Assembly: GCA_934096405.1 (NCBI GenBank)
Contig: CAKOLW010000003.1
Span: forward strand, 3,282 to 67,281
Direction: 5' to 3'
DNA: 64,000 nt
From: an uncultured Bacilli bacterium
GTDB lineage: Bacteria > Bacillota_I > Bacilli_A > RF39 > UBA660
Part shown: piece after piece, positions 1,278 to 64,000 of the stretch
Layout: every line of letters starts with the position of its first letter
Numbering within the stretch: the first letter of the stretch is position 1
Position numbers and translations under genes: made by a program
The notes under the pieces: generated by a model
Told to the model about the DNA's origin: nothing
Seen by the model: the letters and a program-made list of their open reading frames with translations, nothing else
The model's database searches: none

Positions 1278-1554
1278 TAATAATTTTATTGATCCATTTT
1301 ATACTTTATATAATGTTATAGATTTACATGGATTTGATAAAGAATATGCTTTATTTAAGGTAAATGAATTTATTAGTGATAGTCTTAAATTAAAAAAGTA
1401 TGACTTAATTATAATTCATGGAAAAGGGACTGGTGTATTAAAGAATTCTATACATGAGTTTTTAAAACACGATAAAAGAGTTATTGAATATAAAATTGAT
1501 AATTATAATGATGGACAAACTATAGTTAGGTTAGGTGAAATAAATGAAAAATAA
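1252..1554 (+). CDS. Smr (small MutS-related) domain protein
   Basis: IDLHG...IIIHGKGTGVLK is the typical Smr domain pattern. It overlaps both neighbouring genes, which suggests translational coupling. Confidence 0.7.
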   Translation: MKYMKKINNNNFIDPFYTLYNVIDLHGFDKEYALFKVNEFISDSLKLKKYDLIIIHGKGTGVLKNSIHEFLKHDKRVIEYKIDNYNDGQTIVRLGEINEK

Positions 1555-2998
1555 AAATGGTTTTACATTAGTTGAATTGCTAGCAGTTATTGCTTTAATA
1601 GGAGTAATAATGCTTTTAGTAGCACCTAAAGTTATTAATGTATTTAATGATAGTAAAAAAACTGCTTTTTATGATGAAGTAGTTAGTTTATATAACAATG
1701 CTTATACAACTTATGCTAGTAGATTATCAGAAGGTGATACAAGTAAAAGATATTGTTTAGGAGAAGATGAAACTTTAAATAAGTTAGAAATAAAAGATAA
1801 GAATAATTTTTATTATGATATACAATTAAATAATGAAGGAAAAGTAATAAAAATTAAAGTTAAAAATAAGAATTATAATATTTCTATATCTAATAGTAAT
1901 GGATTAGACAAAAGTGATATAAAAGTTGAAAGTGTTCAAGTTAATGATAAAACTCAATATTTAAATTGTAGTGGAGAGGGATTAACTTTGACACAAACTT
2001 TGTTAAGAGATAATCCAATAGTAAGTGAAAGAACTGATTTTTCACCATATCATGATGAGCCTATCGAAAATGGAACAATTTATAAAACTAATGAAACAGA
2101 AGATGGAAGTATAGTATATTATTACTATGGTAATATAAACAACAATTGGTTTAAGTTTGCTAATTATTATTGGCGAATAATAAGAACTAATGAAAATGGT
2201 GGAATAAGGTTATTATTTGTAGGAAAGAACCATGATACAATTGATGATAGTAAATTGTATAGTACTACTAGAAAATATAAAGATTTAACTGGTATTTCTT
2301 CTGATCCAATGTATGTTGGATTTATGTATGGAACAAGTGGGTCTTTAGAAAATAATAGAACAAATGAAAACATTAGTACTATATTAGAAGAGTTAGAATC
2401 ATGGTATGAAAAAAATATTTCATATAAATATGAAAAGTATATTAGTATGGATGCAATTTATTGTAATGATAGAAGCATTGGTAGTGGTACTTATTCTACT
2501 TCTTCATCCGATTATTTCAGATATGGTGCTTCTGTTAGATTATCTAATAAAACGCCTTCTTATAAATGTGGAGGAAATGGTAATGGTGGTACATTTGCTA
2601 CTGCCGGTGATGCTGATAAGTTTAGTGTAAGTAAAGCTTCAGGAGGAAATGGAGAATTAATTTACCCAATTGCTTTAATAACTTTAGATGAAATAGTTTT
2701 TGCTGGTGGTCCATATCCAAATGTTTGGTATTTTAGTACAAGTACTGGAAATACTTTGATTGAATATTATTCTTGGTGGACTATGACACCTATTAATTGG
2801 AACAATGGAAATTCAAGAGTAGCAGCAATTAATGGTGCAATTTATCCGGGAAGTTTCTCTAGTTTAAACATTGATTCTTCAGGAGGAGATTTGGCTGTTA
2901 TGAGACCTGTAATTTCACTAGATAAATGTGTTAAATTAAATGGTACTGGAACTGCAACTGATCCTTATGTCGTTGATGAAGATGCTAGTACTTGTTAG
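1544..2998 (+). CDS. Paralog P1: type IV prepilin-leader protein carrying the conserved YWRIIRTN...VRPVISL...STC core
   Basis: N-terminus MKNKNGFTLVELLAVIALIGVIM is a class III prepilin signal (G|FTLVE with Glu at +5). The rest aligns with 7 other ORFs in the window (LRDNP, NNWFKF, YWRIIRTNENGG, YVGFMYG, AIYCNDRS, YPIALITLDE, WWTMTP, MRPVISLDKC, DPYVVDEDASTC). Confidence 0.85.
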   Translation: MKNKNGFTLVELLAVIALIGVIMLLVAPKVINVFNDSKKTAFYDEVVSLYNNAYTTYASRLSEGDTSKRYCLGEDETLNKLEIKDKNNFYYDIQLNNEGKVIKIKVKNKNYNISISNSNGLDKSDIKVESVQVNDKTQYLNCSGEGLTLTQTLLRDNPIVSERTDFSPYHDEPIENGTIYKTNETEDGSIVYYYYGNINNNWFKFANYYWRIIRTNENGGIRLLFVGKNHDTIDDSKLYSTTRKYKDLTGISSDPMYVGFMYGTSGSLENNRTNENISTILEELESWYEKNISYKYEKYISMDAIYCNDRSIGSGTYSTSSSDYFRYGASVRLSNKTPSYKCGGNGNGGTFATAGDADKFSVSKASGGNGELIYPIALITLDEIVFAGGPYPNVWYFSTSTGNTLIEYYSWWTMTPINWNNGNSRVAAINGAIYPGSFSSLNIDSSGGDLAVMRPVISLDKCVKLNGTGTATDPYVVDEDASTC

Positions 2999-3008
2999 GA
3001 GGTATTGA

Positions 3009-4418
3009 ATGAAGAAAAGTAAAAAAGGATTTACATTGGTTGAACTATTAGCAGTTATTGCTTTAATAGGAGTAATTATGCTAATAGTTGCACCTAATGT
3101 TATAAGATTGTTTAAAAAGGGAACTAAGTCTGCATTTAAAAATGAAGTATTAACTATATATAATAGTGTGTATCCTACATATTTATCAAGAACTAGTGAT
3201 GGAGATTATTCAACTAGGTTTTGTTTTACACATGGTATAGGTGATTCATTGGATGTAGAAAATAAAGAAAATATTTCTTATGACATTTCTATTGATGATG
3301 ATGGTAATATAACAAAATTTACTGTTATTAATGATGATTATGTATTTAAAGGAAATAAAATTACTAAAAAAGATATTAAATCAAATAATATTAAAGAAAA
3401 AACTAATAGTGATGTAATAATATGTGATAATATACCTTTAACATTGTCACAAGCAATGTTGAGAGATAATCCGACAAGAAACGTAAGAAGTAATAATGAT
3501 GATATAACTGACTTTGTAGGACTATTTACTGAGAATACTACTGGGACATTGTTTACTTCAACAGAAAGTATAAGTGGAATAACTGATGTGCCACAAGAAG
3601 TATACTATTATGCTGGAAATACAACAAATAACTGGGTAAAATTCGGAGGATTTTACTGGAGAATAATAAGAACAAATCATGATGGAAGTGTAAGATTACT
3701 TTACTCCGGAACAAGCTCTGATACAACAAACGGTTATATTGGAACAAGTGCATATAATAGTTCAGCTAATAGCACAAAATATGCGGGATATAAGTATGGA
3801 GAAGATACTTCTTATGATACAATGACAAATAATACAATAGATAGTACAGTAAAAACATATATAGATGCATGGTATAAAAATAATTTAACAAATTATACAA
3901 AATACTTGAGTACAAGTGCAGTATATTGTAATGATAGAGGTATAAGTGGAATATATTCAGCAAGTACTAGATATTATTATGAATCATATACAAGAGCATA
4001 TTCATATTTAACACCAACTTATGATTGTTATAATCAAAAAGATGCGTTTAGTGTAGATAATACAAGTGCTAAATTAAATTACCCAATAGCTTTAATGACA
4101 TTTGATGAAATGTGGTTTGCTGGAAGTTGGAGAAATCCATCATGGAGTAGTCAATATGCTTGGTTACACACAAATAGTAAAGGAAATTCAATCACAGGTA
4201 ATACTAGATGGTGGTCTTTGTCACCTAATCGTTGGGATGGAAAAAATTCTTATCAGTGGAGTTGTGCTTTTGATGGTGATGCATATTTAGCAATGAGTAG
4301 TACAAACTCTAATTATGGTGTCCGTCCTGTAATATCATTAAAATCATGTGCTAAAGTAACAGGAACAGGAACTGCTGATAATCCATATGTAGTGGATGAA
4401 AAAAATTCTTCGTGCTAA
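3009..4418 (+). CDS. Paralog P2: type IV prepilin-leader protein with the conserved core (subtype A)
   Basis: MKKSKKGFTLVELLAVIALIGVIM prepilin leader. The core contains TGTLFTSTESISGITDVPQEVYYYAGNTTNNWVKFG, YWRIIRTNHDGSVRLLY, AVYCNDRG, YPIALMTFDE, WWSLSP, VRPVISLKSC and NPYVVDEKNSSC. Confidence 0.85.
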   Translation: MKKSKKGFTLVELLAVIALIGVIMLIVAPNVIRLFKKGTKSAFKNEVLTIYNSVYPTYLSRTSDGDYSTRFCFTHGIGDSLDVENKENISYDISIDDDGNITKFTVINDDYVFKGNKITKKDIKSNNIKEKTNSDVIICDNIPLTLSQAMLRDNPTRNVRSNNDDITDFVGLFTENTTGTLFTSTESISGITDVPQEVYYYAGNTTNNWVKFGGFYWRIIRTNHDGSVRLLYSGTSSDTTNGYIGTSAYNSSANSTKYAGYKYGEDTSYDTMTNNTIDSTVKTYIDAWYKNNLTNYTKYLSTSAVYCNDRGISGIYSASTRYYYESYTRAYSYLTPTYDCYNQKDAFSVDNTSAKLNYPIALMTFDEMWFAGSWRNPSWSSQYAWLHTNSKGNSITGNTRWWSLSPNRWDGKNSYQWSCAFDGDAYLAMSSTNSNYGVRPVISLKSCAKVTGTGTADNPYVVDEKNSSC

Positions 4419-6096: not shown

Positions 6097-8217
6097 ATGA
6101 CAGTAAAAGACTATGCATTAGATTTAAATGTTAGTGTTAATAGTGTTTTAGATAAATGTAAAAGTTTAGGCATAAAGGTTAGTAGTGAAAATGATTATTT
6201 AGAAGATGATGATATTATAATGTTAGATAATGTTATTGGAGAAATGGCTACTAATGAAGAAGTAGAAGAAAATTTACTTAGTGAAGAATTAGAAGATAAG
6301 TTTAACTTAGAAGATAGAGCTAATAATTTAATAGATGAAGATTTAACTGAAGAAAGAACTAAGAAAGTTAAATTAAAGAAAAAAGATTCTAATAAGAATG
6401 AAGATTTTAAGAAAGAAAAGAAGAATATTTATAAGCATAAAACTAAGTTACAAACTAATAAGAGTGAAGATGATACAAATGTAATACTTTATACTGATGG
6501 TATGACTGTTAAAGATTTAGCTAGTAAACTTGGTATAAGAGATGAAGAGATAATTAAGAAGATGTTTGGTATGGGATTAATTCTTAATATTAATCAGGCT
6601 ATTACATTTGAAGATGCTGAAGTTGTATGTTTAGAATATAATAAAGAATTAAAGAAAGAAGAAAGTAAAGATATTAGTAATTTTGAAGAATATGAAATTA
6701 TTGATGATGAGAATGATTTAGTTCCAAGACCGCCTATTGTTACTATTATGGGACATGTTGATCATGGTAAAACAAGTTTACTTGATTATATAAGACATTC
6801 TCATGTTGTAAGTGGAGAAGCAGGTGGAATTACCCAACATATTGGTGCTTATCAAGTTGAGATTAAAGGTAATTTAATTACATTTATTGATACTCCTGGA
6901 CATGCTGCATTTACTGAAATGAGAGCAAGAGGAGCAAAGATTACTGATATTGTTGTTATAATAGTGGCTGCTGATGATGGAGTTATGCCACAAACTAAAG
7001 AAGCAATAGACCATGCTAAAAGTGCTGGAGTTCCTATTATAGTGGCTATTAATAAAATAGATAAAGGTATAGGAAATATTGATAAAATAATGAGTGAGAT
7101 GAGTGAATATGGATTGACTCCTGAAGAATGGGGTGGAGATACTATATTTGTTAAATTATCTGCTCATACTGGAGAAAATGTTGACTTATTATTAGAGAAT
7201 ATTATTGCTTTAGCTGAAATGCAAGAATTAAAAGCAAATCCTAATAGGTATGCTGTAGGTACAGTTATTGAAGCTAAATTAGATAAAAATAAGGGACCAG
7301 TTGCAACACTTCTTATTAATAATGGTACTTTAAGATTAGGAGATCCTATTGTAGTTGGTTCTTCATTTGGTAAAGTAAGAACTTTAAAAAATAGTAATGG
7401 TATTGATTTAACTAGTGCTTTACCTAGTACTCCAGTTGAAGTTACAGGACTTAATGAAGTACCAGTCGCTGGAGATAAATTTATGGCATTTGAAAGTGAA
7501 AAAGAAGCAAGAAGTGTAGCTGAAAAGAGATCAAATATACAAAAAGAAAAGAAATATGCTAAGAAGGCAGTAAGTCTAGATGATTTATTTGAATCTATTA
7601 AAGAAGGTCATAAAGAAATTAATATAGTACTTAAAACTGATGTTAAAGGTAGTGAAGAGGCAGTTAAAAATGCTCTTGAAAAGATAAGTGTTGATGGAGT
7701 TAAAATATCAGTTATAAGAAGTGGAGTAGGAACTATTACAGAAAGTGATGTAGTGTTAGCTAGTGCATCAAATGCAATTATTATTGGATTTAATGTTGTT
7801 CCTAGTCATGAAACTAAAGAAACAGCTAAACAATATAATGTTGATATTAGATTATATAATATTATTTATAAAGTAGTAGAAGAAATAGAAGCAGCTATGA
7901 AAGGTATGCTTGATCCTGAATACGAAGAGGTTATTACTGGTAATGCTGAAGTTAGACAAATATTTAAGTTTTCTAAAGTTGGTAATATCGCAGGTAGTCA
8001 TGTTACTAGTGGTGTTGTAAAAAGTAATAGTCTTGTAAGATTAATTCGTGATGGAGTGGTAGTATATACTGGTAAAATAGGAAGTTTACAAAGAGAAAAG
8101 GATCAAGTTAAAGAAGTAAAAAATGGATTTGATTGTGGTATTACATTAGAAAACTTTATTGATATTAAAGTTGGTGATGTAATTGAAGCATATGAAATGA
8201 AGGAAGTAAAGAGATAA
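6097..8217 (+). CDS. infB: Translation initiation factor IF-2
   Basis: GTPase motifs GHVDHGKTS, DTPGH and NKID, with conserved C-terminal domains. 706 aa. Confidence 0.97.
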   Translation: MTVKDYALDLNVSVNSVLDKCKSLGIKVSSENDYLEDDDIIMLDNVIGEMATNEEVEENLLSEELEDKFNLEDRANNLIDEDLTEERTKKVKLKKKDSNKNEDFKKEKKNIYKHKTKLQTNKSEDDTNVILYTDGMTVKDLASKLGIRDEEIIKKMFGMGLILNINQAITFEDAEVVCLEYNKELKKEESKDISNFEEYEIIDDENDLVPRPPIVTIMGHVDHGKTSLLDYIRHSHVVSGEAGGITQHIGAYQVEIKGNLITFIDTPGHAAFTEMRARGAKITDIVVIIVAADDGVMPQTKEAIDHAKSAGVPIIVAINKIDKGIGNIDKIMSEMSEYGLTPEEWGGDTIFVKLSAHTGENVDLLLENIIALAEMQELKANPNRYAVGTVIEAKLDKNKGPVATLLINNGTLRLGDPIVVGSSFGKVRTLKNSNGIDLTSALPSTPVEVTGLNEVPVAGDKFMAFESEKEARSVAEKRSNIQKEKKYAKKAVSLDDLFESIKEGHKEINIVLKTDVKGSEEAVKNALEKISVDGVKISVIRSGVGTITESDVVLASASNAIIIGFNVVPSHETKETAKQYNVDIRLYNIIYKVVEEIEAAMKGMLDPEYEEVITGNAEVRQIFKFSKVGNIAGSHVTSGVVKSNSLVRLIRDGVVVYTGKIGSLQREKDQVKEVKNGFDCGITLENFIDIKVGDVIEAYEMKEVKR

Positions 8218-8555
8218 TGAAATTAAAAGGAGAAAGAGTAGCTTCTGATTTATTAAAAGAACTTGGCATGATTTTACTTACTGATGCGAAAGATGAAGAT
8301 TTTAAATATGTTACATTAACTTATGCAACTGTTACAAATGATTTATCTTTTGCTAAAGTTTATTTTACTACATTAGATAATGAAAATAAGGATAAAGTTT
8401 TAAAAGACTTAAATAATGCAAGTGGCTATTTTAGAAGTAGTTTAGCTGGTAAATTGAATATTAGACATATTCCAGAAATAAGATTTGTATATGATGAGTC
8501 AATTGAATATGGTCAAAAAATAGAAAAGATAATTGAAAAAATTAATGAAGAATAA
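8217..8555 (+). CDS. rbfA: Ribosome-binding factor A
   Basis: RVASDLLKELGMIL...VTNDLSFAKVYF...IRHIPEIRFVYDES. The start overlaps the infB stop (TAATG). Confidence 0.9.
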   Translation: MKLKGERVASDLLKELGMILLTDAKDEDFKYVTLTYATVTNDLSFAKVYFTTLDNENKDKVLKDLNNASGYFRSSLAGKLNIRHIPEIRFVYDESIEYGQKIEKIIEKINEE

Positions 8556-8651
8556 TGGACAGAATAAATAAAATTTAGTATAATGTATACAGATGGACAT
8601 ATTGAATACAATATAAAAAGAGTTCACTTAACTTTAGTCGGTCAGGTGTTC

Positions 8652-8813
8652 TCAGTCCTTGATGACTTGGAAAAACACCGTTCTAACTAGAAAGGTGTTT
8701 TTCTTAATTTTTGACCCCCTTACTAAGTTCGAAGTTAATCTTCGAATAGTTTTATTAATAAAACTAATATAATAATTAGAATAATCAAATATTCCATTAA
8801 TATACCCTTTCAT
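8652..8813 (-). CDS. Candidate small basic protein (53 aa), not in the ORF track
   Basis: My translation is MKGYINGIFDYSNYYISFINKTIRRLTSNLVRGSKIKKNTFLVRTVFFQVIKD. ATG is at 8813..8811, 7 nt after a perfect AAGGAGGTG (8829..8821). 53 open codons are unlikely by chance in DNA this AT-rich. Caveat: the ORF contains the rbfA-operon terminator hairpin. Confidence 0.4.
   Translation of the reverse strand: MKGYINGIFDYSNYYISFINKTIRRLTSNLVRGSKIKKNTFLVRTVFFQVIKD
8671..8710 (+). terminator. Intrinsic terminator of the nusA-infB-rbfA operon
   Basis: AAAAACACC-G-TTCT[aact]AGAA-A-GGTGTTTTT followed by CTTAATTTTT. Confidence 0.8.
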
Positions 8814-8879
8814 AGGACCTCACCTCCTTCCTAAAAAGGACTGAGGGAAAATCACCTGACAATTAAGTGAACTAAAAAT

Positions 8880-8908
8880 ATGATATCAAATAAATGTACT
8901 ATAGTCAA
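8880..8908 (-). promoter_or_regulatory. Sigma-A-type promoter on the minus strand driving the small-ORF unit
   Basis: On the reverse strand: TTGACT (8908..8903), 17 nt spacer, TATCAT (8885..8880). The predicted start falls at the first base of the right inverted-repeat arm. Confidence 0.5.
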
Positions 8909-8994
8909 GCAAAATAACTTATTAAATAAAGGAAAAAAATTATATGTAAAAAACAAACTAAATTTGGTAAAATATAAATGAAGTGGTGATATTT

Positions 8995-30468: not shown

Positions 30469-30497
30469 AAAAGTAGTTGTAATAGACTACTTTTTTT
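30469..30497 (+). terminator. Intrinsic terminator, homologous to the polC terminator
   Basis: AAAAGTAGT-tgtaatag-ACTACTTTTTTT. Confidence 0.8.
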
Positions 30498-30502
30498 GAT
30501 AA

Positions 30503-30690
30503 AATTAAAGAGTAAAAAGTAGAAGGAGTACAGAACTATGGAAAGAATAATTCTCTTTGATTTAAGTACCAAACTTGGTACGAATTTCGGGGGGGGTTAA
30601 AAATAATGCCTCTCATAGTTTTTTCGTTATATTAAATTCATAGGCATCAGTCTATGAGTTTTTTAGTGCTCTAAAAAATGGAGGCAAAAG
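30503..30690 (+). promoter_or_regulatory. Conserved 5' leader L1 of paralog P4: short ORF, G8 tract and two terminator-like hairpins
   Basis: TGATAAAAT extended -10 at 30497..30505. The conserved box AATTAAAGAGTAAAAAGTAGAAGGAG precedes a 20-codon ORF at 30538..30600 (MERIILFDLSTKLGTNFGGG). G8 lies at 30589..30596. Hairpin 1 ends CTCATAG plus T6 (30612..30624). Hairpin 2 is TCATAG-gcatcagt-CTATGA plus T6 (30638..30664). The 5' and 3' parts are near-identical to 58724..58908. Confidence 0.6.
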
Positions 30691-32211
30691 ATGAAGGAAA
30701 GAAAATATGCTTTGTTTGGAATAATTACAACAATAATTTTAATAATTGGAACTACACTAGCATACTTTAAATTTCAAGTATTTGGAAATAAAAAAGTAAT
30801 AAATGTGGAATCAACTAACTTACAAATAATATTTAATAATGGAGATAGTACATTTGAAGGAAATGCTTTAGAACCAGGTAATTATGATGAAATAAAGACA
30901 TTTAGTGTTAAAAACGAAACAGATACAGAGTTTAAATATAATATAATAATAAAAGATTTAATAAATACATTTGTAACAAAAGGTTATTTAGTATATAAAA
31001 TAACTAATACATCAAATAATGGAGGATACAGTATGAATGATTTTGAAGATATACCAAAATCATCAATAGCTTTAGATATAGGACTAGCATATAATATAAC
31101 TATTCCATCAGGAGTAACACAGGATTATACTATAGAGATAAAGTATTTAAATGATCCAAGTTATGATCAATCAGATGATATGGAAAAAGAAGTATCAGGA
31201 AGTATTTATATAGCAAAAGGAACAGAACCAACATTTATAACAAAAATATTAGAACAGAATAAAACAATAAGTGAAAGAACTAATTTTAAAGTAACTAATA
31301 CAGATAAAACAACAGGAACAATATATAAAACAAATAAAACAGAAGACTCTAGTGATGTATATTATTATTCAGGTAATACAATAAATAACTGGGTTAAGTT
31401 TGGAAAGTATACAACGGATGATACTTCAAGTAAAAAATTATGGAAATCTGGAGACGATATGTACTGGAGAATAATAAGAACCAATGAAGATGGGAGTGTA
31501 AGACTATTATATTCTGGAACAAGTCCAGATACAACAGAAGGCTATATAGGAACCTCAGCATTTAATAATTCAACTAAAGATCCATTGTATGTAGGTTATA
31601 TGTATGGAACAAGTGGTTCATTAGAAAGTAATAGAACAAATGAAAATGATAGTACAATAAAAACTGTAATTGACAAGTGGTATCAAAATAATTTACTAAA
31701 TGATTATGATAAATATATAAGTAAATCAGCAATATATTGTAATGATAGAAATGCTAGTAATTATGCTTTAGAAGGAACATATTATTCTAGCGCATACAAT
31801 AGAATTGAACAAGGATCGCCTACTTTAAAATGCGAAAATAAAAGTGATTCATTTAGTTATAATAATACAAGTGCAAAATTAAAATATCCTATAGCATTAG
31901 TAACTACAGATGAATTAAATTTTGCTGGAGGATATCTACTTAGAGCTGAAGGCATTTATTTTACAGTTAATAGTAATAATCTTTCAATTACTAATACACT
32001 ATTTTGGTGGACAATGAGTCCTTGGGGACTATACACTACGATAGCAGATACCTTCAGAGTAAAAGATACAGGAGTAATAAATGGAAACAATGTTTCATTT
32101 TTATTTGCAGTTAGACCTGTTATATCTGTATCATCATGTGCAAGAGTTAAATCAGGTAATGGAACAGCAGATAATCCATATGTAGTAGATGAAGAAGCTA
32201 GCACTTGCTAG
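30691..32211 (+). CDS. Paralog P4: TasA/SipW-type signal plus N-terminal domain plus conserved core (mosaic subtype)
   Basis: Signal IIGTTLAYFKFQVFG. The core has TGTIYKTNKTEDSSDVYYYSGNTINNWVKFG, YWRIIRTNEDGSVRLLY, YVGYMYGTSGSLESNRTNEN, AIYCNDRN, YPIALVTTDE, WWTMSP, VRPVISVSSC and NPYVVDEEASTC. Confidence 0.85.
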   Translation: MKERKYALFGIITTIILIIGTTLAYFKFQVFGNKKVINVESTNLQIIFNNGDSTFEGNALEPGNYDEIKTFSVKNETDTEFKYNIIIKDLINTFVTKGYLVYKITNTSNNGGYSMNDFEDIPKSSIALDIGLAYNITIPSGVTQDYTIEIKYLNDPSYDQSDDMEKEVSGSIYIAKGTEPTFITKILEQNKTISERTNFKVTNTDKTTGTIYKTNKTEDSSDVYYYSGNTINNWVKFGKYTTDDTSSKKLWKSGDDMYWRIIRTNEDGSVRLLYSGTSPDTTEGYIGTSAFNNSTKDPLYVGYMYGTSGSLESNRTNENDSTIKTVIDKWYQNNLLNDYDKYISKSAIYCNDRNASNYALEGTYYSSAYNRIEQGSPTLKCENKSDSFSYNNTSAKLKYPIALVTTDELNFAGGYLLRAEGIYFTVNSNNLSITNTLFWWTMSPWGLYTTIADTFRVKDTGVINGNNVSFLFAVRPVISVSSCARVKSGNGTADNPYVVDEEASTC

Positions 32212-37641: not shown

Positions 37642-39435
37642 ATGAGTAAAGAAATTAAAAGAAGTTATAAATTAACTATGTTAGTGGCTGTTTTATGTTT
37701 AATAGTAATAGTAGGATCTACTACTTATGCTTATTTTAAAACTAGAATTAGTGGTAGTGGTACTAAGATTGATATAAGTGGTAAGACTTTTGATTTAAAT
37801 ATTAATGAGAATAGTATTACACTTAATTCATTAAAGCCTATATATGATACAGATAAGGCTACTAAAGCTAATATAAAAACATTTACTGTTAGTGGTGGTG
37901 GCGTATCTAGTGGGTGCGTAAGTATTTATTTAACTTTAGATAGTATAGGTACTAACTTAGTTACTAGATTTTTAAAATATGAATTATTAGATGGTAGTAC
38001 TTTAGTATCAGCAGGAGATTTTAGTGGAAGAAGTGTTGGTAGTAGTGTATCTTTAGCTAAGAATATATCCTTAAGCGATTTAAGTAGTAAATCTTATACA
38101 TTAAGAATATGGTTAAGTTATGATGCTGATACAGATCAAAGTAGTATTTTAACAGGTACAGAAGCTGATAGAACATTGCAAGCTCATTTAAAAGCAGTTG
38201 GTACAACTGGTGCTTGTAAAGAATTAACTTTAAAAGAAGCAATTTTAAAAGATAATCCAACAGTCAGTGAAAGAACTAGTTTTACATCAACTAATGTAGC
38301 TAATACGACAGGAACAATATATAAAACAAATAAGACAGAAGACTCTAGTGATGTATATTATTACTCAGGTAATACAACAAATAACTGGGTTAAATTTGGA
38401 AAAGAAACAAGAGGTACTTGTTCATATAATAACAATAAGGTTATATATGTTGATTCAATAGAAGAATGGGAAGAGAAAGATAATAATTTATTAGAGTCTG
38501 AATGTACTGCTGCTAATGTTTGTATTTTTGAGGGAAATTATTATGTTTTTGGAGAAGAAGGCGTTACTTGTGCCGACTTAGATGGAACATCAGTTAATGA
38601 AAAGGCTACATTTACTCCATACCAATTAGATGCTTATTGGAGAATAATAAGAACAAATGAAGATGGTAGTGTAAGACTATTGTATTTTGGAACAAGTCCT
38701 GATACTACCGAACCTAGTATAGGTGTAAGTTATTTTAATGATAATAATTATGTCGGACAGTCTGGATATATGTATGATTTATATGTTGCAGGTTATTCAA
38801 CGGATTATGATGAAATTAGAGCTAATACTACAGATAGTACAATAAAAAAATTTATCGATACATGGTATGAAAAAAACTTATTAAGCAATTATGACAAATA
38901 TATAAGCAAAGCTGCTATATATTGTAATGATAGAAGTATAAAAGATAAAGATAATTTTTCTATGCCTACTAGAGATGATGTTGGTGCTTATATAAGGTTG
39001 TCCCATAAATCTCCATCTTATAAATGTGGTGCTGATAAAGATAATAATTTAATAGAGTCTACACAAGCAGTTGCAGATAAATTTAGTGCAAGTACAACAG
39101 GTGGAGGAAATGGACAATTAAAATATCCAATTGCTTTAATGACTGTTGACGAAATATCATTTGCTAGTATTTCTTCTACTAAATGGTATAATACAAATAG
39201 TAATAGTAATTCTGACTTAAATAATATAGGTTGGTGGCTTCTATCACCTTCTTCCTATAATTTATCTTCACAAGTATACAATATTGGTTCAACTGGTGCT
39301 ATGAATGATACTACTAAGCCAAATGAACTTTATACTGTTCGTCCTGTAATTTCCTTAGCCTCTTGTGTCAAAGTAACAGGAAGTGGGACTACAACTGATC
39401 CGTATATCGTGAATGAAAGTGCTAGTACATGCTAA
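37642..39435 (+). CDS. Paralog P5: TasA/SipW-type signal plus divergent N-terminal domain plus conserved core with a Cys-rich insert
   Basis: The signal VGSTTYAYFKTRISGSG and LNSLKPIYD resemble TasA (GGGTWAAFND, LSNLKPGD). The core has TGTIYKTNKTEDSSDVYYYSGNTTNNWVKFG, YWRIIRTNEDGSVRLLY, AIYCNDRS, KFSASTTGGGNGQLKYPIALMTVDE, WWLLSP, VRPVISLASC and DPYIVNESASTC. Confidence 0.85.
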   Translation: MSKEIKRSYKLTMLVAVLCLIVIVGSTTYAYFKTRISGSGTKIDISGKTFDLNINENSITLNSLKPIYDTDKATKANIKTFTVSGGGVSSGCVSIYLTLDSIGTNLVTRFLKYELLDGSTLVSAGDFSGRSVGSSVSLAKNISLSDLSSKSYTLRIWLSYDADTDQSSILTGTEADRTLQAHLKAVGTTGACKELTLKEAILKDNPTVSERTSFTSTNVANTTGTIYKTNKTEDSSDVYYYSGNTTNNWVKFGKETRGTCSYNNNKVIYVDSIEEWEEKDNNLLESECTAANVCIFEGNYYVFGEEGVTCADLDGTSVNEKATFTPYQLDAYWRIIRTNEDGSVRLLYFGTSPDTTEPSIGVSYFNDNNYVGQSGYMYDLYVAGYSTDYDEIRANTTDSTIKKFIDTWYEKNLLSNYDKYISKAAIYCNDRSIKDKDNFSMPTRDDVGAYIRLSHKSPSYKCGADKDNNLIESTQAVADKFSASTTGGGNGQLKYPIALMTVDEISFASISSTKWYNTNSNSNSDLNNIGWWLLSPSSYNLSSQVYNIGSTGAMNDTTKPNELYTVRPVISLASCVKVTGSGTTTDPYIVNESASTC

Positions 39436-44802: not shown

Positions 44803-47800
44803 AGAATAGGAATGATAAAAATGGTTAAAGTAAGAAAGTCTATAATTATATTTGGAATAATATCAATTGGCTTAACTATCTGTTTATTAGGCTCTTTAGA
44901 TAAAAATGAATCTAATAATAAATTAATTGGTATTTTAGAGAATACTACTTCTATAGATAACTATAGTACTGCTTTAACTGTGTTTTATAATTCTTTAGAT
45001 AAGTCTAATAATGAGGACGATAGAAATAAAAATTTATTAGAGACAACTATGTTTAATTGTAATAGTGGTGGATGTACTTCATTAGATAATTTCAAAAATA
45101 TAGGATTTTTAACTAAATATGAATATGATTTAATCGGTGGAGATAATTCATATTTATATAATTATTCTGATTATTATGTAATTAATAATGAAGGTAATAT
45201 TGAATCATTAAGTGGAGATAGTAATAGTGGTATCAGACCAACAGTTTATTTAAATGAAGGAACTAAAGTAACTGGAAGTGGTACAGTTAATGATCCATAT
45301 AAAATAAGTCACTATAAAGATATTAATTTTATTGCTTATACATTTAATGGAAAAGAGACTGATATTAAATATTCAGAATTGATTAAAACTAAAGCAATAA
45401 AGGCAATTAATTGTGAAAATGGAACTAAGGCAACTTGGGATACAGAAGAGAATGTAATAAAATTTAAAGATACAAAAGTACCTGACTTTTGTACTATAGA
45501 TTTTACAGATGGAATACAGATAACTTTAAATGCAACTAATGGAACAGTAATGACACCAGTAACAAGAGTAGTAGCCAATAAAGGTGAAACTACATATACT
45601 GTTACTCCAAATAGTGGTTATAAATTAACTGGTTCAAGTATCAGTTGTGATGGAGGAGCTACTATAGAATTAACTAATAAAGGAGTTAAAATATCTAATA
45701 TAACAAAAAAACAAACATGTAAAATAACATTGACTAAGAGTGGCCCATTCAAAGAAGGAACATTAGCTGAGAAAATATTATTAGATAATTCAAGATTGGC
45801 TTCACGTTCTAATTTCGAAACGTTTGGTGCTACTTTAGATTTGCCAAATATCATTTATACTACCAATAATACTGAAGATGGAAGTACGGTTTATTATTAT
45901 TCAGGCAACAATGCTAACAACTGGATTAAGTTTGGCAAAGAAACAACCGAAGGTCGTTGCACTTATGAAAATGAAGAAGTTTTTTATAGTAAAGAAGGAA
46001 AATATAATAAAATAACTACCGAATCAGAATGTAATTCTAAAACTGTTTGTTTAGAATATGGTAGACCAATATTCTACGATTATAGTTGTAGTGGAACTTA
46101 TTATAATAATACTTATAAAAGGGCTACATGGGTAGCATCCAAATCAAATCAAGATACTTATTGGAGAATAATTCGTACAAACGAAGATGGCGGATTAAGA
46201 TTACTTTATGTCGGTCCTAATCCAGAAACAAAAATGGGATATATTGGTCAAGCACAGTATAATAATACAGGCGATACCATACAAAATACTGATTCTATGT
46301 ATGTAGGATATATGTATGGGACAATTTCAGATAAACGAACTAATACAAATAGTAGTACAATCAAGGAATATTTAGAAAACTGGTATAAAAATAATTTATT
46401 TGCAAAATATGATAAATATATAAGTAAAACAGCAATTTATTGTAATGATAGAAGTTCTACATATGTTTCTGGAAATGGAAGCACTTATTCTTCAAGCACA
46501 AGACTTAATATTTTGTCGCCTTCTTATAGGTGTGGTGATACTGGTTTTGGAACACTTGTTGAAGAATTTCAAGCAATTAACGATAAGTTTAGTGTTAGCA
46601 AGGCTTCAGGTGGTAATGGACAATTAACTTATCCGATTGCATTAATAACTGCTGATGAAATAGCCTTTGCTGGAGGTAGAAACCAAAAATACGATGAGAA
46701 TGATGCATCATTAAATTTTAATAATAAATTATATTATTATGCTAATAGTAATGGAGGAAGTGTGATAGGTGCTAGCAAAAGTTGGTGGACAATGAGTCCA
46801 AATCATGATGGCGCAAGTTATTCAAGTCCATATCATATTCCAACTTTAAAATTAGTAGGGGGATATCAAATTACACAATATACTGGCACTTATTATGGAG
46901 CCTTATATACTGGTTATTCATATGGTGTTGGTTTAGTTCGTCCAGTCATTTCCTTAAAATCTTGTGTTAAATTTAAAAATGGAAATGGAACTTCTGGAAA
47001 TCCATATGAAATTACAATAGATGATGCTTGTGCTAAAGCAGAAAATTAAAAAATAGAATAGGAATGATAAAAATGGTTAAAGTAAGAAAATCTATAATTA
47101 TATTTGGCTTAATATCAATTGGTTTGACTATATGTTTATTAGAGTCTTTAGATAAAAATGAATCTAATAATAAATTAATTGGTATTTTAGAGAATACTAC
47201 TTCTATAGATAACTATAGTACTGCTTTAACTGTGTTTTATAATTCTTTAGATAAGTCTAATAATGAGGACGATAGAAATAAAAATTTATTAGAGACAACT
47301 ATGTTTAATTGTAATAGTGGTGGATGTACTTCATTAGATAATTTCAAAAATATAGGATTTTTAACTAAATATGAATATGATTTAATCGGTGGAGATAATT
47401 CATATTTATATAATTATTCTGATTATTATGTAATTAATAATGAAGGTAATATTGAATCATTAAGTGGAGATAGTAATAGTGGTATCAGACCAACAGTTTA
47501 TTTAAATGAAGGAACTAAAGTAACTGGAAGTGGTACAGTTAATGATCCATATAAAATAAGTCACTATAAAGATATTAATTTTATTGCTTATACATTTAAT
47601 GGAAAAGAGACTGATATTAAATATTCAGAATTGATTAAAACTAAAGCAATAAAGGCAATTAATTGTGAAAATGGAACTAAGGCAACTTGGGATACAGAAG
47701 AGAATGTAATAAAATTTAAAGATACAAAAGTACCTGACTTTTGTACTATAGATTTTACAGATGGAATACAGATAACTTTAAATGCAACTAATGGAACAGT

Positions 47801-48027: not shown

Positions 48028-49253
48028 TACTTTTAAATAATCCAAATGTAGAGACAAGAAGTGATTTTAGTAATACATTTAATGCCGATTCTTTTAATGT
48101 AAATAAGGGTTTATTTACTATTTATAAGATTTCTAGCACTTCTGGTAATCAAATGACAGAAGATACAGATAATGATGGAATGGGTGAGGATGTATATTAT
48201 TATGCTGGATATACAGTTAATAACTGGGTAAAGTTTGGAACATATCCAACAGATTTATATTATTATAGTTATGTTTTAAATTCACGACTTTATACTGGCT
48301 ATGTTACTTCTAATTCTTCTTGTTGCCCTAGTGGTGTTACTTGTACCTGCAGTAAAATGTATTCTAAAGGTGATGATATTTTATGGAGAATAATTCGTAC
48401 TAATGAAGATGGCGGAGTAAGATTGTTATATACAGGTTTTAAGAATGGCATAATTAATAACGGAGAACTTATACAAAATAATTATACTTATACTATTCCA
48501 GGCTCTAGTGATAAATTTAACGATTTGGGTTATATGTATGGAATGGCTACCAGTTACAATGCGGCAACGATCGAGAACGCTAGACTAAATACTAATGATA
48601 GTGTTCAAAAAAATAGAATTGATACATGGTATCAAAATAATTTATTAAATGATTATGACAAATATATTAGTAAAACAGCTATATATTGTGATGACAGAAG
48701 CATTTCAGTAAGCAATTCAACTGAATGGTTTGGGACAGCTAAAAGATCTAGTAATAATACGCCTTCTTATTTATGCGGTAGCAATGGTACTGGTGGATTA
48801 TTTGAAAGTACTCAGGCAATAGAAGATAAATTTAGTGTAAGCAAAAGTTCTGGAGGAAATGGACAATTAAAATATCCAATTGGAATGATGACTGTTGATG
48901 AAGTTATCTTTGCTGGAGCACAATCTGGAAAAACTTCAGTATCTCCCTATTTTTGGTTGTTAAGAGATAAATATAATCAACAAAGTATGAATTCTTTCCA
49001 ATTATTTAGCTATCGAACTTTTCAAAAAACTACAACTTATGGAATTTATCGTTATATTATGACTCCTATTGTTAATAATAGTTCTAGTTCAATACTTTAT
49101 GATGTTTTAAATACAGATGGTTATACTGGAACTAATGGTTTAAGACCTGTTACTTCATTAAAATCTTGTGTTAAGTGGCTCAAAGGCGACGGTACAGCTA
49201 ACCACCCTTACGAAGTTACAATAGATGCTGCTTGTGCTAACACAGAAAATTAA
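47064..49253 (+). CDS. Paralog P7: tandem copy of P6 with a near-identical N-terminal ~320 aa and a diverged core
   Basis: The first ~320 aa are near-identical to P6. The core has NNWVKFG, LWRIIRTNEDGGVRLLY, AIYCDDRS, KFSVSKSSGGNGQLKYPIGMMTVDE and LRPVTSLKSC. The WWxxSP motif is degenerate. The C-terminus is ACANTEN. Confidence 0.85.
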   Translation: MIKMVKVRKSIIIFGLISIGLTICLLESLDKNESNNKLIGILENTTSIDNYSTALTVFYNSLDKSNNEDDRNKNLLETTMFNCNSGGCTSLDNFKNIGFLTKYEYDLIGGDNSYLYNYSDYYVINNEGNIESLSGDSNSGIRPTVYLNEGTKVTGSGTVNDPYKISHYKDINFIAYTFNGKETDIKYSELIKTKAIKAINCENGTKATWDTEENVIKFKDTKVPDFCTIDFTDGIQITLNATNGTVMTPVTRVVANKGETTYTVTPNSGYKLANSSISCDGGATIELTSTGVKISNITKTQICKITLTKSGPFKEGTLAERILLNNPNVETRSDFSNTFNADSFNVNKGLFTIYKISSTSGNQMTEDTDNDGMGEDVYYYAGYTVNNWVKFGTYPTDLYYYSYVLNSRLYTGYVTSNSSCCPSGVTCTCSKMYSKGDDILWRIIRTNEDGGVRLLYTGFKNGIINNGELIQNNYTYTIPGSSDKFNDLGYMYGMATSYNAATIENARLNTNDSVQKNRIDTWYQNNLLNDYDKYISKTAIYCDDRSISVSNSTEWFGTAKRSSNNTPSYLCGSNGTGGLFESTQAIEDKFSVSKSSGGNGQLKYPIGMMTVDEVIFAGAQSGKTSVSPYFWLLRDKYNQQSMNSFQLFSYRTFQKTTTYGIYRYIMTPIVNNSSSSILYDVLNTDGYTGTNGLRPVTSLKSCVKWLKGDGTANHPYEVTIDAACANTEN

Positions 49254-58166: not shown

Positions 58167-58640
58167 ATGAATAATAATTTAGGTTCATGTGGATGTAGAA
58201 ATTCAAATAATGATGATTGTCAAAATAATTGCATACAAGAAATACTACAAGTAATTAATGTTCTTCAAAATAATGCTTGTCCAGATAATTGTTTAAATTC
58301 TTGTGATAGACCTGCATTAGGTGGAGGCGGAAATTGTGTAGTATGTAATACTAGACCAATAATGCTTTATACTTGTTGTGGAAATGGAACACCTTGGAGT
58401 ATGCCAACAACTAGAACTACAACTGATTGTAATAGTGAAGATGCTACAGGATGCTCAAGTGTATTCAGAGTAGAAAAATGTGATGGATGTTGTTGTACAT
58501 TTAGAGTATTAGCTGCTAATACTGATTCTAGTAGTCCTTATCCATATGTTGCTACTGATTCAATATTTACTATGAATGTTAATTGCATATGCTCATTAAG
58601 ATGTTTAAATGATACTTATGTAGAATGTATATGTGGTTAA
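58167..58640 (+). CDS. Cysteine-rich spore coat/exosporium protein, CotZ/CotY family-like
   Basis: About 26 Cys in 157 aa. The segments IQEILQVINVLQNNACPDNC, NTRPIMLY, SVFRVEKCDGCCCTFRVLA and NCICSLRCLND parallel, from memory, B. subtilis CotZ (EDLQNAVEEDCPTGC, FFRVERVHGSCATLSLL, CFCAINCLN). Confidence 0.6.
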   Translation: MNNNLGSCGCRNSNNDDCQNNCIQEILQVINVLQNNACPDNCLNSCDRPALGGGGNCVVCNTRPIMLYTCCGNGTPWSMPTTRTTTDCNSEDATGCSSVFRVEKCDGCCCTFRVLAANTDSSSPYPYVATDSIFTMNVNCICSLRCLNDTYVECICG

Positions 58641-58908: not shown

Positions 58909-60570
58909 ATGAAAGAAAAGAAGTATTTAATTTATGGAATATGTTTATCACTATTAATAGTTATAGGAGTAACACTAGCATACTTTATAACAGAGATAGA
59001 AGGAGATAAAAAAGATGTTACATTAAATACAGGAGATTTAAGAGTAATATTTAATAATGGAGAGAAAATAGAAGGAATAGATATAGAACCAGGATGGAGT
59101 ATAACAAAAACATTTAGTATAGAAAATAAATCTAAGACAGAATATAAATACAATATAGTAATACAAGATTTAGTAAATACATTTGTATCAGATAACTTAG
59201 TATATAAAATAACAAGTACAAATAATGGACACAATATGGCAGATTATGAAGTATTACCAAAATCAGAAACAACAGAAGATACAATACTAACATATAGTAC
59301 AACAATATCAGGGAAAACGACACAAGAATATACAATAGAAGTAAAGTTTAAAGAAGAAGATAGAAACCAATATGAAGATATGGGTAAAACTATAACAGGT
59401 AAGATTTATATTACTAAAGGCACAAAAAATTCAACTTTTTTAACTCAGGCAATACTAAGAGATAACCCAACAATAAGTGAAAGAACAGATTTTATAAATG
59501 TTAATATTGAAAACACAACAGGAACAATATATAAAACAAATAAAACAGAAGATGGTAGTTATGTATACTATTATTCTGGAAATACAACAAATAATTGGAT
59601 TAAATTTGGCAAGTATGAAACAGACAGGTTTATGTCAACTAATTGTTATAATTCTTTTCGTTGTGAGGGCAATAGTCTTAATGAATGCTATGCTGCTGGT
59701 GGTATAGCTTGTTACTCTGCTTGGAATATAGGCGATGACATATATTGGAGAATAATTCGTACTAATGAAGACGAAAGCATAAGACTTTTATATTTTGGTA
59801 CTAAAATGAATGTAAACAATAGAAGTGTTATATCTACTTCTGAATATAATATAAATAATAGTGATCCTATGTATGTAGGCTATATGTATGGAACAAGTGG
59901 TTCATTAGAAAATAATAGAACAAATAGAAATGATAGTACAGTAAAAACATATATTGATACATGGTATCAAAATAATCTATTAACAAATTATGATAAATAT
60001 ATAAACAAAACTGCAATATATTGTAATGATAGAAGTGTTCCAAATAATAAATATTCCACATCTAGTAAATTTATATATGCATCTGCTCAAAGAATAGGCA
60101 CGGGAGCACCATCATATAAATGTGGTGTAGATACAAACAATGAATTAATTGAAAGCACACAGGCTGTTGCAGATAAATTTAGTGCAAGTACAGAAGGCGG
60201 AGGAAATGGACAATTAAAATATCCAATTGCTTTAATGACGGGAGACGAAATGGCATTTGCAGGTGGCTACAATGGTAGCGAAAAATCAGATGACCCGTAC
60301 CCATGGCATATATCTAACAGAGATGGAAAATGGAGATATCACCCTTTTTATTCATTATCGCCTGGAACTAATAGTCAACTAGTATTCATGGGTGCAAATT
60401 TACCACCAGCATCCATTGAATTTGATGCTGACATCGGCAGCTTTAATTCTATTAGTGGTGAAGAATTTGGAGTTGTTCCGGTCATTTCCCTATCTTCTTG
60501 TGTCAAAGTAACAGGAACAGGAACTGCTGATGATCCATATGTTGTTGATGAAGAAGGGTCTACATGTTAA
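58909..60570 (+). CDS. Paralog P8: TasA/SipW-type signal plus N-terminal domain plus conserved core with a Cys-rich insert
   Basis: Signal VIGVTLAYFITEIEG. The N-terminal domain is about 75% identical to that of P3. The core has TGTIYKTNKTEDGSYVYYYSGNTTNNWIKFG, YWRIIRTNEDESIRLLY, YVGYMYGTSGSLENNRTN, AIYCNDRS, KFSASTEGGGNGQLKYPIALMTGDE, VVPVISLSSC and DPYVVDEEGSTC. Confidence 0.85.
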   Translation: MKEKKYLIYGICLSLLIVIGVTLAYFITEIEGDKKDVTLNTGDLRVIFNNGEKIEGIDIEPGWSITKTFSIENKSKTEYKYNIVIQDLVNTFVSDNLVYKITSTNNGHNMADYEVLPKSETTEDTILTYSTTISGKTTQEYTIEVKFKEEDRNQYEDMGKTITGKIYITKGTKNSTFLTQAILRDNPTISERTDFINVNIENTTGTIYKTNKTEDGSYVYYYSGNTTNNWIKFGKYETDRFMSTNCYNSFRCEGNSLNECYAAGGIACYSAWNIGDDIYWRIIRTNEDESIRLLYFGTKMNVNNRSVISTSEYNINNSDPMYVGYMYGTSGSLENNRTNRNDSTVKTYIDTWYQNNLLTNYDKYINKTAIYCNDRSVPNNKYSTSSKFIYASAQRIGTGAPSYKCGVDTNNELIESTQAVADKFSASTEGGGNGQLKYPIALMTGDEMAFAGGYNGSEKSDDPYPWHISNRDGKWRYHPFYSLSPGTNSQLVFMGANLPPASIEFDADIGSFNSISGEEFGVVPVISLSSCVKVTGTGTADDPYVVDEEGSTC

Positions 60571-63614: not shown

Positions 63615-64000
63615 ATGAAGAAAACTATAATTATCTTATTAGTATGTATTTTGCTTAGTATTAGTACCTTTTTCGGCGTCAGTAGAAGTATTAAAATTGA
63701 TTATTTAACTACTAAAGATAACTTAAAGAATGTATTAGATAATCTTTATAATACTTTTGATATGAAAGATTTTTACTTTCAAAGTACAGATAAATTTAAT
63801 TGTAATGAAAAAGAATGTAAATCTAGTATTTTTAATAATATAGGTATTCTTTCATATTCTGAGCTTAAAAGTTATTTATATAATGATAATCCATATTTTG
63901 TATTGGATGATAATGTAATTAGAAATGTTAAATCTACTAATCTTGTTGAAGATATTAATAGTACTACTTCTAGTCGTGTTAGATCAACATTAAATGTTAG
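63615..64000 (+). CDS. Paralog P9 (partial, runs off the right edge): TM anchor plus the P6/P7-type N-terminal mini-module
   Basis: Not in the track. ATG at 63615 follows GGAGG. My translation is MKKTIIILLVCILLSISTFFG...FNCNEKECKSSIFNNIGILSYSELKSYLYNDNPYFVLDDN...SSRVRSTLNV. This parallels P6 FNCNSGGCTSLDNFKNIGFLTKYEYDLIGG...SGIRPTVYLN. Confidence 0.6.
   Translation, partial: MKKTIIILLVCILLSISTFFGVSRSIKIDYLTTKDNLKNVLDNLYNTFDMKDFYFQSTDKFNCNEKECKSSIFNNIGILSYSELKSYLYNDNPYFVLDDNVIRNVKSTNLVEDINSTTSSRVRSTLNV

Follow-up and report, generated by a model that had tools for sequence, protein, structure and literature searches.

T1TAdb defines type I toxin-antitoxin systems by a toxin messenger RNA (mRNA) of 150-400 nt, a toxin of 20-60 amino acids and an antisense RNA of 60-200 nt (PMC8594479). 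In the Gram-positive families, the antisense overlap lies on the 3' side (PMC8594479). In hok/mok, translation of the leader is needed only as far as the toxin start, and the leader product itself is not needed (PMC9841398). The locus described here is an accessory module of ~385 bp located between rbfA and uvrC in an uncultured Bacilli bacterium. It lies in a 64,000-nt stretch of contig CAKOLW010000003.1 (assembly GCA_934096405.1), and this whole stretch is called the window. The module probably represents a new type I toxin-antitoxin-like family, whose candidate toxin is a 20-residue hydrophobic peptide encoded in the +1 frame of a leader-like open reading frame (ORF). We infer its transcription, the coupling of the two frames, toxicity and neutralisation from the DNA.

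The module resembles hok/sok (plasmid R1, with mok, and chromosomal homologues) in that a leader frame bearing a Shine-Dalgarno (SD) sequence overlaps a short hydrophobic toxin frame. The leader product is not selected. Here too, an anti-SD sequence upstream of the leader SD is predicted to hold it, a long-range 5'/3' helix is predicted to close the full-length mRNA, and the 3' end of a processed form could be set by a stable hairpin (PMC9841398). Unlike Hok, which has ~50 amino acids, the candidate toxin has 20 and gives no HOK_GEF match; the antisense gene is on the 3' side instead of over the leader start region, and the host belongs to a low-GC Bacilli lineage. The txpA/RatA, bsrG/SR4, bsrE/SR5 and yonT/SR6 systems of Bacillus subtilis likewise consist of convergent genes with a 3' overlap of ~100 nt, and encode small hydrophobic peptides in Gram-positive hosts (PMC6562991; PMC8594479). 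In contrast to these systems, the overlap here stops short of the toxin ORF, the candidate toxin is far smaller, the module has a leader-like frame and a predicted 5'/3' closing helix, and the peptide and RNA sequences are unrelated. For aapA1/IsoA1 of Helicobacter pylori, a primary mRNA locked by a long-distance 5'/3' interaction and a small hydrophobic peptide are described (cited within PMC9841398 and PMC8594479). However, IsoA1 lies within the mRNA and overlaps the ORF, a leader frame is absent there, and the host is from a different phylum. The Ibs toxins of the enterobacterial Ibs/Sib systems are also very short (18-19 amino acids) and almost purely hydrophobic; IbsA has 19 amino acids according to the abstract of a preprint (bioRxiv 10.1101/2025.05.26.656083). 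Sib spans the whole Ibs ORF (PMC8594479), whereas the predicted antisense RNA here stops ~25 nt short, and there is no sequence similarity between the two.

With a predicted mRNA of 205-260 nt, an ORF of 20 amino acids and a predicted antisense RNA of ~120 nt, the module falls within the type I size range. The geometry of its promoters and terminator also gives the partial 3'-side overlap of TxpA/RatA, BsrE-G-H, YonT and SprG/SprF, although neither covariance models nor peptide comparison placed it in any of these families. The par locus of the Enterococcus plasmid pAD1 (Fst; RNA I and RNA II) is transcribed convergently to a shared bidirectional terminator, has a sequestered ribosome-binding site and carries repeats near both 5' ends. 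All of these features recur in the predicted layout here. However, the par repeats are direct and yield complementary RNAs, whereas the repeats here are inverted, giving RNA stretches of the same sense that cannot pair through them. A par-like mechanism was excluded because of the inverted repeats and a trans pairing equal to that of shuffled sequences. There is no Fst match.

The two overlapping frames and their ribosome-binding signals are the following.

8735..8797, minus strand: candidate toxin ORF of 20 codons, MEYLIILIIILVLLIKLFED plus stop, in the +1 frame of the 53-codon ORF.
8810..8806, minus strand: weak SD (AAAGG) of the 20-codon ORF.
8652..8813, minus strand: 53-codon ORF (ATG at 8813), now read as an overlapping frame of leader type, or as one that is open incidentally.
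8820..8829, minus strand: SD of the leader frame, AAGGAGGTGA, a 10-nt perfect anti-SD match 6 nt before the ATG at 8813.

Which of the two frames encodes the product? The first-pass annotation, made from the letters of the window, named a basic and aromatic-rich peptide encoded by the 53-codon ORF. Both the perfect SD and the ORF at 8813..8652 are present. Furthermore, no other ORF in the window has an anti-SD match as long as AAGGAGGTGA, and real genes there have matches of at most 7 nt. It stands at the correct spacing from its ATG, and its GAGGTGA core is conserved in all copies of the module, including a 71%-identical copy on a third contig (L041). The frame is open over 51-54 codons in 11 of the 13 copies, L041 included. 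These observations favor the 53-residue peptide as the product or toxin, but the pattern of change does not. Compared with L041, the frame shows 1 synonymous and 14-18 non-synonymous changes, a ratio of non-synonymous to synonymous change (pN/pS) of 3.4-4.2. Its substitutions display no third-position bias, whereas ~85% of the differences in the flanking genes fall at third positions. The 12 close variants specify eight different peptides, the peptide length ranges from 8 to 54 among the 13 copies, and the C-terminus varies in sequence and length. The indels (-2 after codon 2 in L024, -1 in L016, +1 in L019 and -7 in L013) are all four not multiples of 3, and two variants are truncated early, at 8 and 25 codons. 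A terminator lies inside the frame, whose best preserved stretch, IKKNTFLV, is simply what the terminator hairpin gives when translated.

Homology searches point the same way. No homologue of the 53-residue peptide was found in 5.8 billion clusters, viral contigs or plasmids. An exhaustive representative search with the frame returned P0122, which is the same frame in L041, together with two chance matches to repeat proteins; P0122 was the sole informative protein match, and L041 was found through it. Pfam, NCBIfam and PADLOC gave no match for either the 53-residue or the 20-residue peptide. The substitution pattern largely refutes the 53-residue peptide as the product, a reading that we now consider highly improbable. 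In other words, the basic peptide is, by the pattern of its changes, not the selected product.

The 20-codon ORF is, on the same comparisons, the only frame under purifying selection. Compared with L041, it shows 9 synonymous and 6 non-synonymous changes (pN/pS 0.17), and the L041 version, MNYLIVLIIILTLLIKLFQD, is 80% identical, with start and stop at the same positions. The peptide is unchanged in 11 of the 12 close variants, the exception being L016, in which it is cut by the -1 deletion. All five within-clade substitutions in the ORF are synonymous (Tyr3, two sites in Leu4, Leu7 and Leu14), compared with an expected synonymous share of ~22% for random changes. MEYLIILIIILVLLIKLFED contains 12 consecutive Leu, Ile or Val residues with polar and charged residues on either side. 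This is the longest unbroken run of these three residues among the 413 ATG-initiated ORFs of 12-45 codons in the window.

Two difficulties of the earlier reading change with the frame. The objection that the peptide is not hydrophobic holds for the 53-residue peptide and is answered by the conserved hydrophobic ORF in the +1 frame. The terminator had been placed inside the ORF; its hairpin (8670..8703) is indeed within the 53-codon ORF but outside the 20-codon frame. The paradox of a terminator inside a gene is gone because the 20-codon stop lies upstream of the bidirectional terminator. The truncated leaders, which still overlap the toxin frame, fit a hok/mok arrangement because only leader translation to the toxin start matters there (PMC9841398). 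Two natural knock-outs of the candidate toxin occur, namely the frameshift in L016 and the loss of the GG of the 20-codon ORF's SD in L024. There is a practical lesson for annotation as well: the frame preceded by the best ribosome-binding site was not the one under selection, and gene callers never report the conserved ORF of 20 codons.

On the minus strand, the signals for a transcript that would carry both frames are arranged as follows.

8880..8908, minus strand: toxin-mRNA promoter, TTGACT (8908..8903), a 17-nt spacer and TG-n-TATCAT (-10 box 8885..8880), with 10/12 matches and an extended -10.
8836..8873, minus strand: 5' arm, in which AGUUCACUUAAUU and GUCAGGUG pair with the 3' arm and CCCUCAGUCCUU acts as anti-SD or third pairing block.
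8621..8660, both strands: left arm, serving as 3' arm in the long mRNA form and making up the body of the predicted antisense RNA.
8613..8620, minus strand: U-tract CUUUUUAU (CTTTTTAT in the DNA listing) after the closing helix, the putative end of the long mRNA form.

The first-pass annotation had recognized most of this arrangement, and it was borne out: the TTGACT-17-TATCAT promoter at 8908..8880 is present, with a TG to be added to it, and so are the arms at 8873..8836 and 8660..8621, a likely transcript start at the arm and the trailing U-tract. The predicted start is A8873, 7 nt after the -10 box. Across copies the -35 box is mostly kept and the -10 box reads TATCAT, TATTAT or TATTGT. 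The arms form an imperfect inverted repeat of 38-40 bp with three pairing blocks of 11-13, 8 and 10 bp. The U-tract is kept in L013 and reads CUCUUUUUU in L041. An outward promoter-like site, CTGACA-17-TATGAT (TATAAT in L013), lies inside the right arm at 8856-8884 on the plus strand, with counterparts in L013 (6033..6005, minus strand) and L015 (488..460, minus strand). Its -10 overlaps that of the toxin promoter on the opposite strand, and it faces the neighboring gene at both loci, uvrC here and an 84-residue gene in L013.

On the opposite strand, a convergent promoter and a terminator used in both directions would define the antitoxin candidate.

8556..8584, plus strand: antisense promoter, TGGACA, 17 nt and TATAAT, with 11/12 matches and a predicted start at ~8591.
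8670..8716, both strands: bidirectional terminator, a hairpin whose stem (8670-8703) is flanked by U/A tracts.
8591..8712, plus strand: predicted antisense RNA of ~120 nt, the antitoxin candidate, placed by the positions of its promoter and terminator.

All copies that have the plus-strand -10 box keep it unchanged, namely the window, L013 (TG-n-TATAAT), L019 and L041, and the GGACATAT and AAAAAGAGTT motifs 3' of it are likewise conserved. The rbfA operon and the predicted antisense RNA both terminate at the bidirectional hairpin, where a short form of the mRNA may also have its 3' end. In terminator variants, the plus-strand hairpin and U-tract are kept and the minus-strand U-tract is interrupted; therefore the hairpin mainly serves the plus strand. 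Partial read-through of the terminator by the minus-strand mRNA probably occurs. The predicted antisense RNA folds at -33.7 kcal/mol (z -3.3) and is, by construction, complementary to 8613-8712 of the long, read-through mRNA. Because the arms are inverted repeats, it shares sequence with the 5' arm of the mRNA, and the two could compete for the 3' arm. The energy of a duplex between it and the 5' portion of the mRNA equaled that of shuffled sequences, so there is no complementarity beyond chance in that portion. Read-through from rbfA is predicted from the layout to add antisense transcription at this locus. The architecture that the first-pass annotation had described, in which rbfA read-through enters a shared terminator overlapping the 3' part of the unit, was upheld.

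Folding of the transcript adds a further layer to this organization. The main local structures on the minus strand are three hairpins.

8767..8805, minus strand: hairpin 1, which buries the toxin AUG (8797..8795); probability of the AUG being unpaired, 0.05.
8747..8766, minus strand: hairpin 2, UAGUUUUA-UUAA-UAAAACUA, inside the toxin ORF, with two compensatory pairs in L041.
8728..8746, minus strand: hairpin 3, whose loop contains the stop codon of the toxin frame and which keeps its shape in L041 through one compensatory pair.

A 269-nt minus-strand RNA folds at -85.8 kcal/mol, compared with -53.8 +/- 4.5 kcal/mol for dinucleotide shuffles (z -7.2). Folding alone cannot pick the strand because the plus strand folds about equally well (z -8.1). 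Hairpin 1 re-forms in L041 with a different apical stem, the compensatory changes of hairpin 2 in L041 are G-C to A-U and U-A to C-G, and hairpin 3 is also terminator-like by score on the plus strand. In predicted folds the leader SD is paired for the most part, its partner being the upstream CCCUCAGUCCUU (probability of the SD being unpaired, ~0.3).

Could the module instead specify a structured RNA without a coding function, or two small RNAs in sense and antisense orientation, both ORFs being incidental? The strong fold z-scores on both strands, the compensatory pairs in hairpins 2 and 3, the conservation at nucleotide level and the tolerance of the 53-codon frame to frameshifts are all in its favor. 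However, the 20-codon frame has a pN/pS of 0.17 and keeps its start and stop at 71% DNA identity, an unusually strong SD stands before an ATG, and Rfam holds no family match at E <= 10. A purely RNA-based module is thus improbable.

How far do the two ends of the mRNA pair? The first-pass annotation gave ~28 bp. A helix joining the ends is present in the minimum-energy fold, with 13 + 8 + 5 = 26 bp. The third block of 10 bp competes with the local hairpin that buries the SD, and the conformer containing this block is less stable by 5.4 kcal/mol. The 5'/3' fold-back is thus a strong thermodynamic prediction, but it lacks covariation and is degraded in some copies. Its action as a translational lock can be proposed only by analogy because the predicted accessibility is equal in the long and short forms of the mRNA.

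How would such a module work? The minus-strand promoter would produce an mRNA of ~205 nt ending at the shared terminator, or of ~260 nt after read-through to the U-tract. In this mRNA, the leader SD would be sequestered by the upstream anti-SD and the toxin AUG by hairpin 1. Because both are held, toxin would be made only after ribosomes load on the leader and melt hairpin 1, in the style of mok/hok. The plus-strand promoter, together with rbfA read-through, would supply the antisense RNA of ~120 nt, which would pair with the 3' 100 nt of the long mRNA, a stretch that takes in the terminator hairpin as well as the 3' arm. On the model of Bacillus systems, the antisense RNA would trigger cleavage of the duplex and decay; it may in addition be a competitor of the 5' arm. 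The peptide would act at the membrane, as other type I toxins do. If this model is correct, it adds a type I family in a gut lineage known only from metagenomes. It would also extend leader-coupled, fold-back-locked control beyond Hok and Ldr, the two Gram-negative families to which the leader ORFs listed in T1TAdb are confined.

The extent of the module is indicated by its absence from some genomes and by its presence at other loci.

8556..8939, both strands: whole accessory module, ~385 bp, delimited by the empty site in a related species and by replacement in the Fic allele.
8579-8921: conserved core, delimited by homology to the second-locus copy L013.

In a related species whose RbfA is 89% identical (L027), the rbfA-uvrC spacer is only 90 nt long and has its own simple terminator. 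Therefore, the whole of 8556-8939 was either inserted here or took the place of other DNA, and it now provides rbfA with its terminator. Among other RbfA relatives, the module was absent, the gene order differed or the contigs were too short. The arm motif of the inverted repeat was present in only two metagenome-assembled genomes (MAGs) when one genome per species of GTDB was scanned. One of them, CAKORV, carries a Fic allele at rbfA-uvrC and a full second copy of the module (L013) at an unrelated locus, flanked by a small gene adjoining nfo and by a lipoprotein-like gene. L013 is 90% identical to the window from 8579, at the plus-strand -10 box, to 8921, just past the minus-strand -35 box. 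Since the homology between the two loci spans 8579-8921, the two convergent promoters delimit the conserved block. This promoter-to-promoter homology, together with the -10 box that is invariant in the 71%-identical copy, strengthens the earlier claim of a self-contained unit with a convergent antisense overlap. Two further copies of the second locus (L015 and L016) came from JGI metagenomes, and additional variants of the rbfA locus were recovered from ENA and Logan. The L041 contig starts at the SD, so the 5' part of that copy is off the contig; the copy precedes a DDE_Tnp_1 (IS4-type) transposase gene (L041 387-1844) by 210 nt.

The module occurs once in the window and 0-2 times per genome. 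A second copy within the window was found neither by arm search nor by nhmmer. Weak BLAST matches at 54531 and 55041 were considered as extra copies and rejected, as they sit in a transmembrane segment of a real gene of 285 residues. A miniature inverted-repeat mobile element or its remnant, with promoters and ORFs as by-products, is a further explanation. The imperfect inverted repeats of 38-40 bp, the insertion relative to the empty site and the copies at different loci, one of them beside an IS4-type transposase, agree with it. However, conservation reaches ~45 bp past both arms and takes in both promoters, no target-site duplication was seen at the module, the copy number is low and the internal ORF is under purifying selection. 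A mobile element of this kind therefore has very little probability. Module DNA showed no similarity to plasmids or phages, and viral pattern scans likewise gave none.

Contigs with an identical RbfA carry two spacer alleles, one like the window and one with a Fic gene. In the Fic allele, a gene of 203 residues takes the place of window 8707-8939, and 8556-8706 is retained. The retained part corresponds to the plus-strand promoter, the left arm, which survives without its partner arm, and the terminator, whose hairpin is kept. The allele was seen in L001 (3487-4203) and in the same region of L004, L006, L008-L012, L018, L020, L021 and L023. A tally over ~46 contigs gave ~15 with the module and ~27 with Fic. 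The Fic protein has the motif HPFREGNGR and matches the PADLOC defence candidate PDC-S04 (E 1.6e-99). In many strains of the species, Fic stands where the module has its right half, and the rbfA-uvrC spacer therefore behaves like a small accessory or defence hotspot. Its states number at least three: empty, module, and Fic with the antisense half. In some Fic alleles (L004, L012, L018 and L021), a 37-nt deletion between two TGGACA repeats (window 8556-8598) takes out the plus-strand promoter and the predicted start; the left arm stays whole.

The alleles thus form a natural series comprising the intact module, a toxin frameshift, the loss of the toxin SD, an antisense-only half with Fic, and the empty site, and they could be used to follow how such modules are gained, disarmed and replaced. 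Presence or absence among strains, antisense-only alleles and natural knock-outs together make a population pattern typical of a toxin locus. They also bear on another explanation, namely a non-toxic small membrane protein with a regulatory or structural function, which would be under antisense control without the module being addictive. The coding and antisense evidence is the same for this protein as for a toxin, L015 tolerates an intact ORF with no obvious antisense promoter, and there is no homology to a known toxin. On the other hand, its presence is strain-variable, a copy sits at a second locus and one lies beside a transposase, antisense-only alleles are common, and knock-outs exist in nature. 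In addition, the translation start region is very heavily sequestered. Such traits suit selfish or defence modules better, and a non-toxic membrane protein is therefore unlikely, though somewhat less so than a non-coding RNA. A stronger version of the toxin-antitoxin reading is that of a novel family, from uncultured gut Bacilli of very low GC, merging two designs known until now only separately: the hok/mok design (leader frame, anti-SD and 5'/3' fold-back) and the Bacillus design (convergent 3' antisense and a shared bidirectional terminator), together with a 20-residue toxin in the +1 frame and alternation with a Fic gene at one hotspot. This full combination is proposed only tentatively and is less likely than not.

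Several observations weigh against a toxin-antitoxin system of type I at this locus. No covariation was seen in the 5'/3' helix in a comparison among close variants, the 5' arm of L041 lying beyond its contig end (its 3' arm reads CCACUUGAU...CCAAGUAAACU). The changes in the helix are one-sided: one G-U, one A-C mismatch, and three outer-block mismatches in L015 and L016. The third block of the helix is lost in L013. Furthermore, the SD and AUG are predicted to be equally accessible in the 261-nt form of the mRNA and in the 210-nt form. The selection statistics are based on one distant homologue (15 codon changes) and five within-clade substitutions, and these five also sit in predicted loops. 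Hydrophobic +1 frames arise readily in AT-rich DNA beside frames rich in Asn, Tyr, Ile and Ser. For example, a hydrophobic mini-ORF of 22 codons, MLNLLILLKILIVLLLVVLDQH (63925-63993, plus strand), useful as a negative control, looks toxin-like. It was rejected as a toxin because it lies within a real gene for a secreted protein, read in another frame; this gene continues past the end of the window. Because such frames are common and the five changes fall in loops, the coding argument rests mainly on the contrast in pN/pS.

Database searches and one of the copies add to these points. The 20-residue peptide had no match in Pfam or NCBIfam at E <= 10, HOK_GEF and Fst included. Rfam 15 gave nothing relevant at the gathering threshold or at E <= 10, where only chance-level matches to unrelated families appeared (E 5-9), and the module matched no known toxin or antitoxin family. 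Finally, L015 has an intact 20-codon ORF without a recognizable antisense promoter. The plus-strand promoter is absent in both L015 and L016; among the toxin promoters, that of L015 is also the weakest (TATTGT and no TG), and in L015 a TATAAT with a poor -35 box lies ~75 nt farther out.

The module occupies the rbfA-uvrC spacer of a very AT-rich bacterium (G+C of the window ~25%), whose nearest public relatives are MAGs labeled 'uncultured Bacilli bacterium' from human gut metagenomes. The gene order is nusA, ylxR, infB, rbfA (8217-8555, plus strand), a spacer of 440 nt, and uvrC. Elsewhere in the window, a T-box leader lies at 26266-26444 on the plus strand (Rfam RF00230, 98.4 bits, E 1.9e-20). 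A multi-copy family of proteins of 470-550 residues with an N-terminal hydrophobic segment surfaced as recurring BLAST matches to one L011 gene. Its copies are ~70-83% identical at the DNA level and are located at ~1544-4418, 18690-19921, 30495-31750, 38246-39143, 45862-46458, 48581-48916 and 58909-60570. Just 5' of one member of this family, at 58167-58640 on the plus strand, is a Cys-rich ORF of 157 residues with CxxC, CC and CCC motifs.

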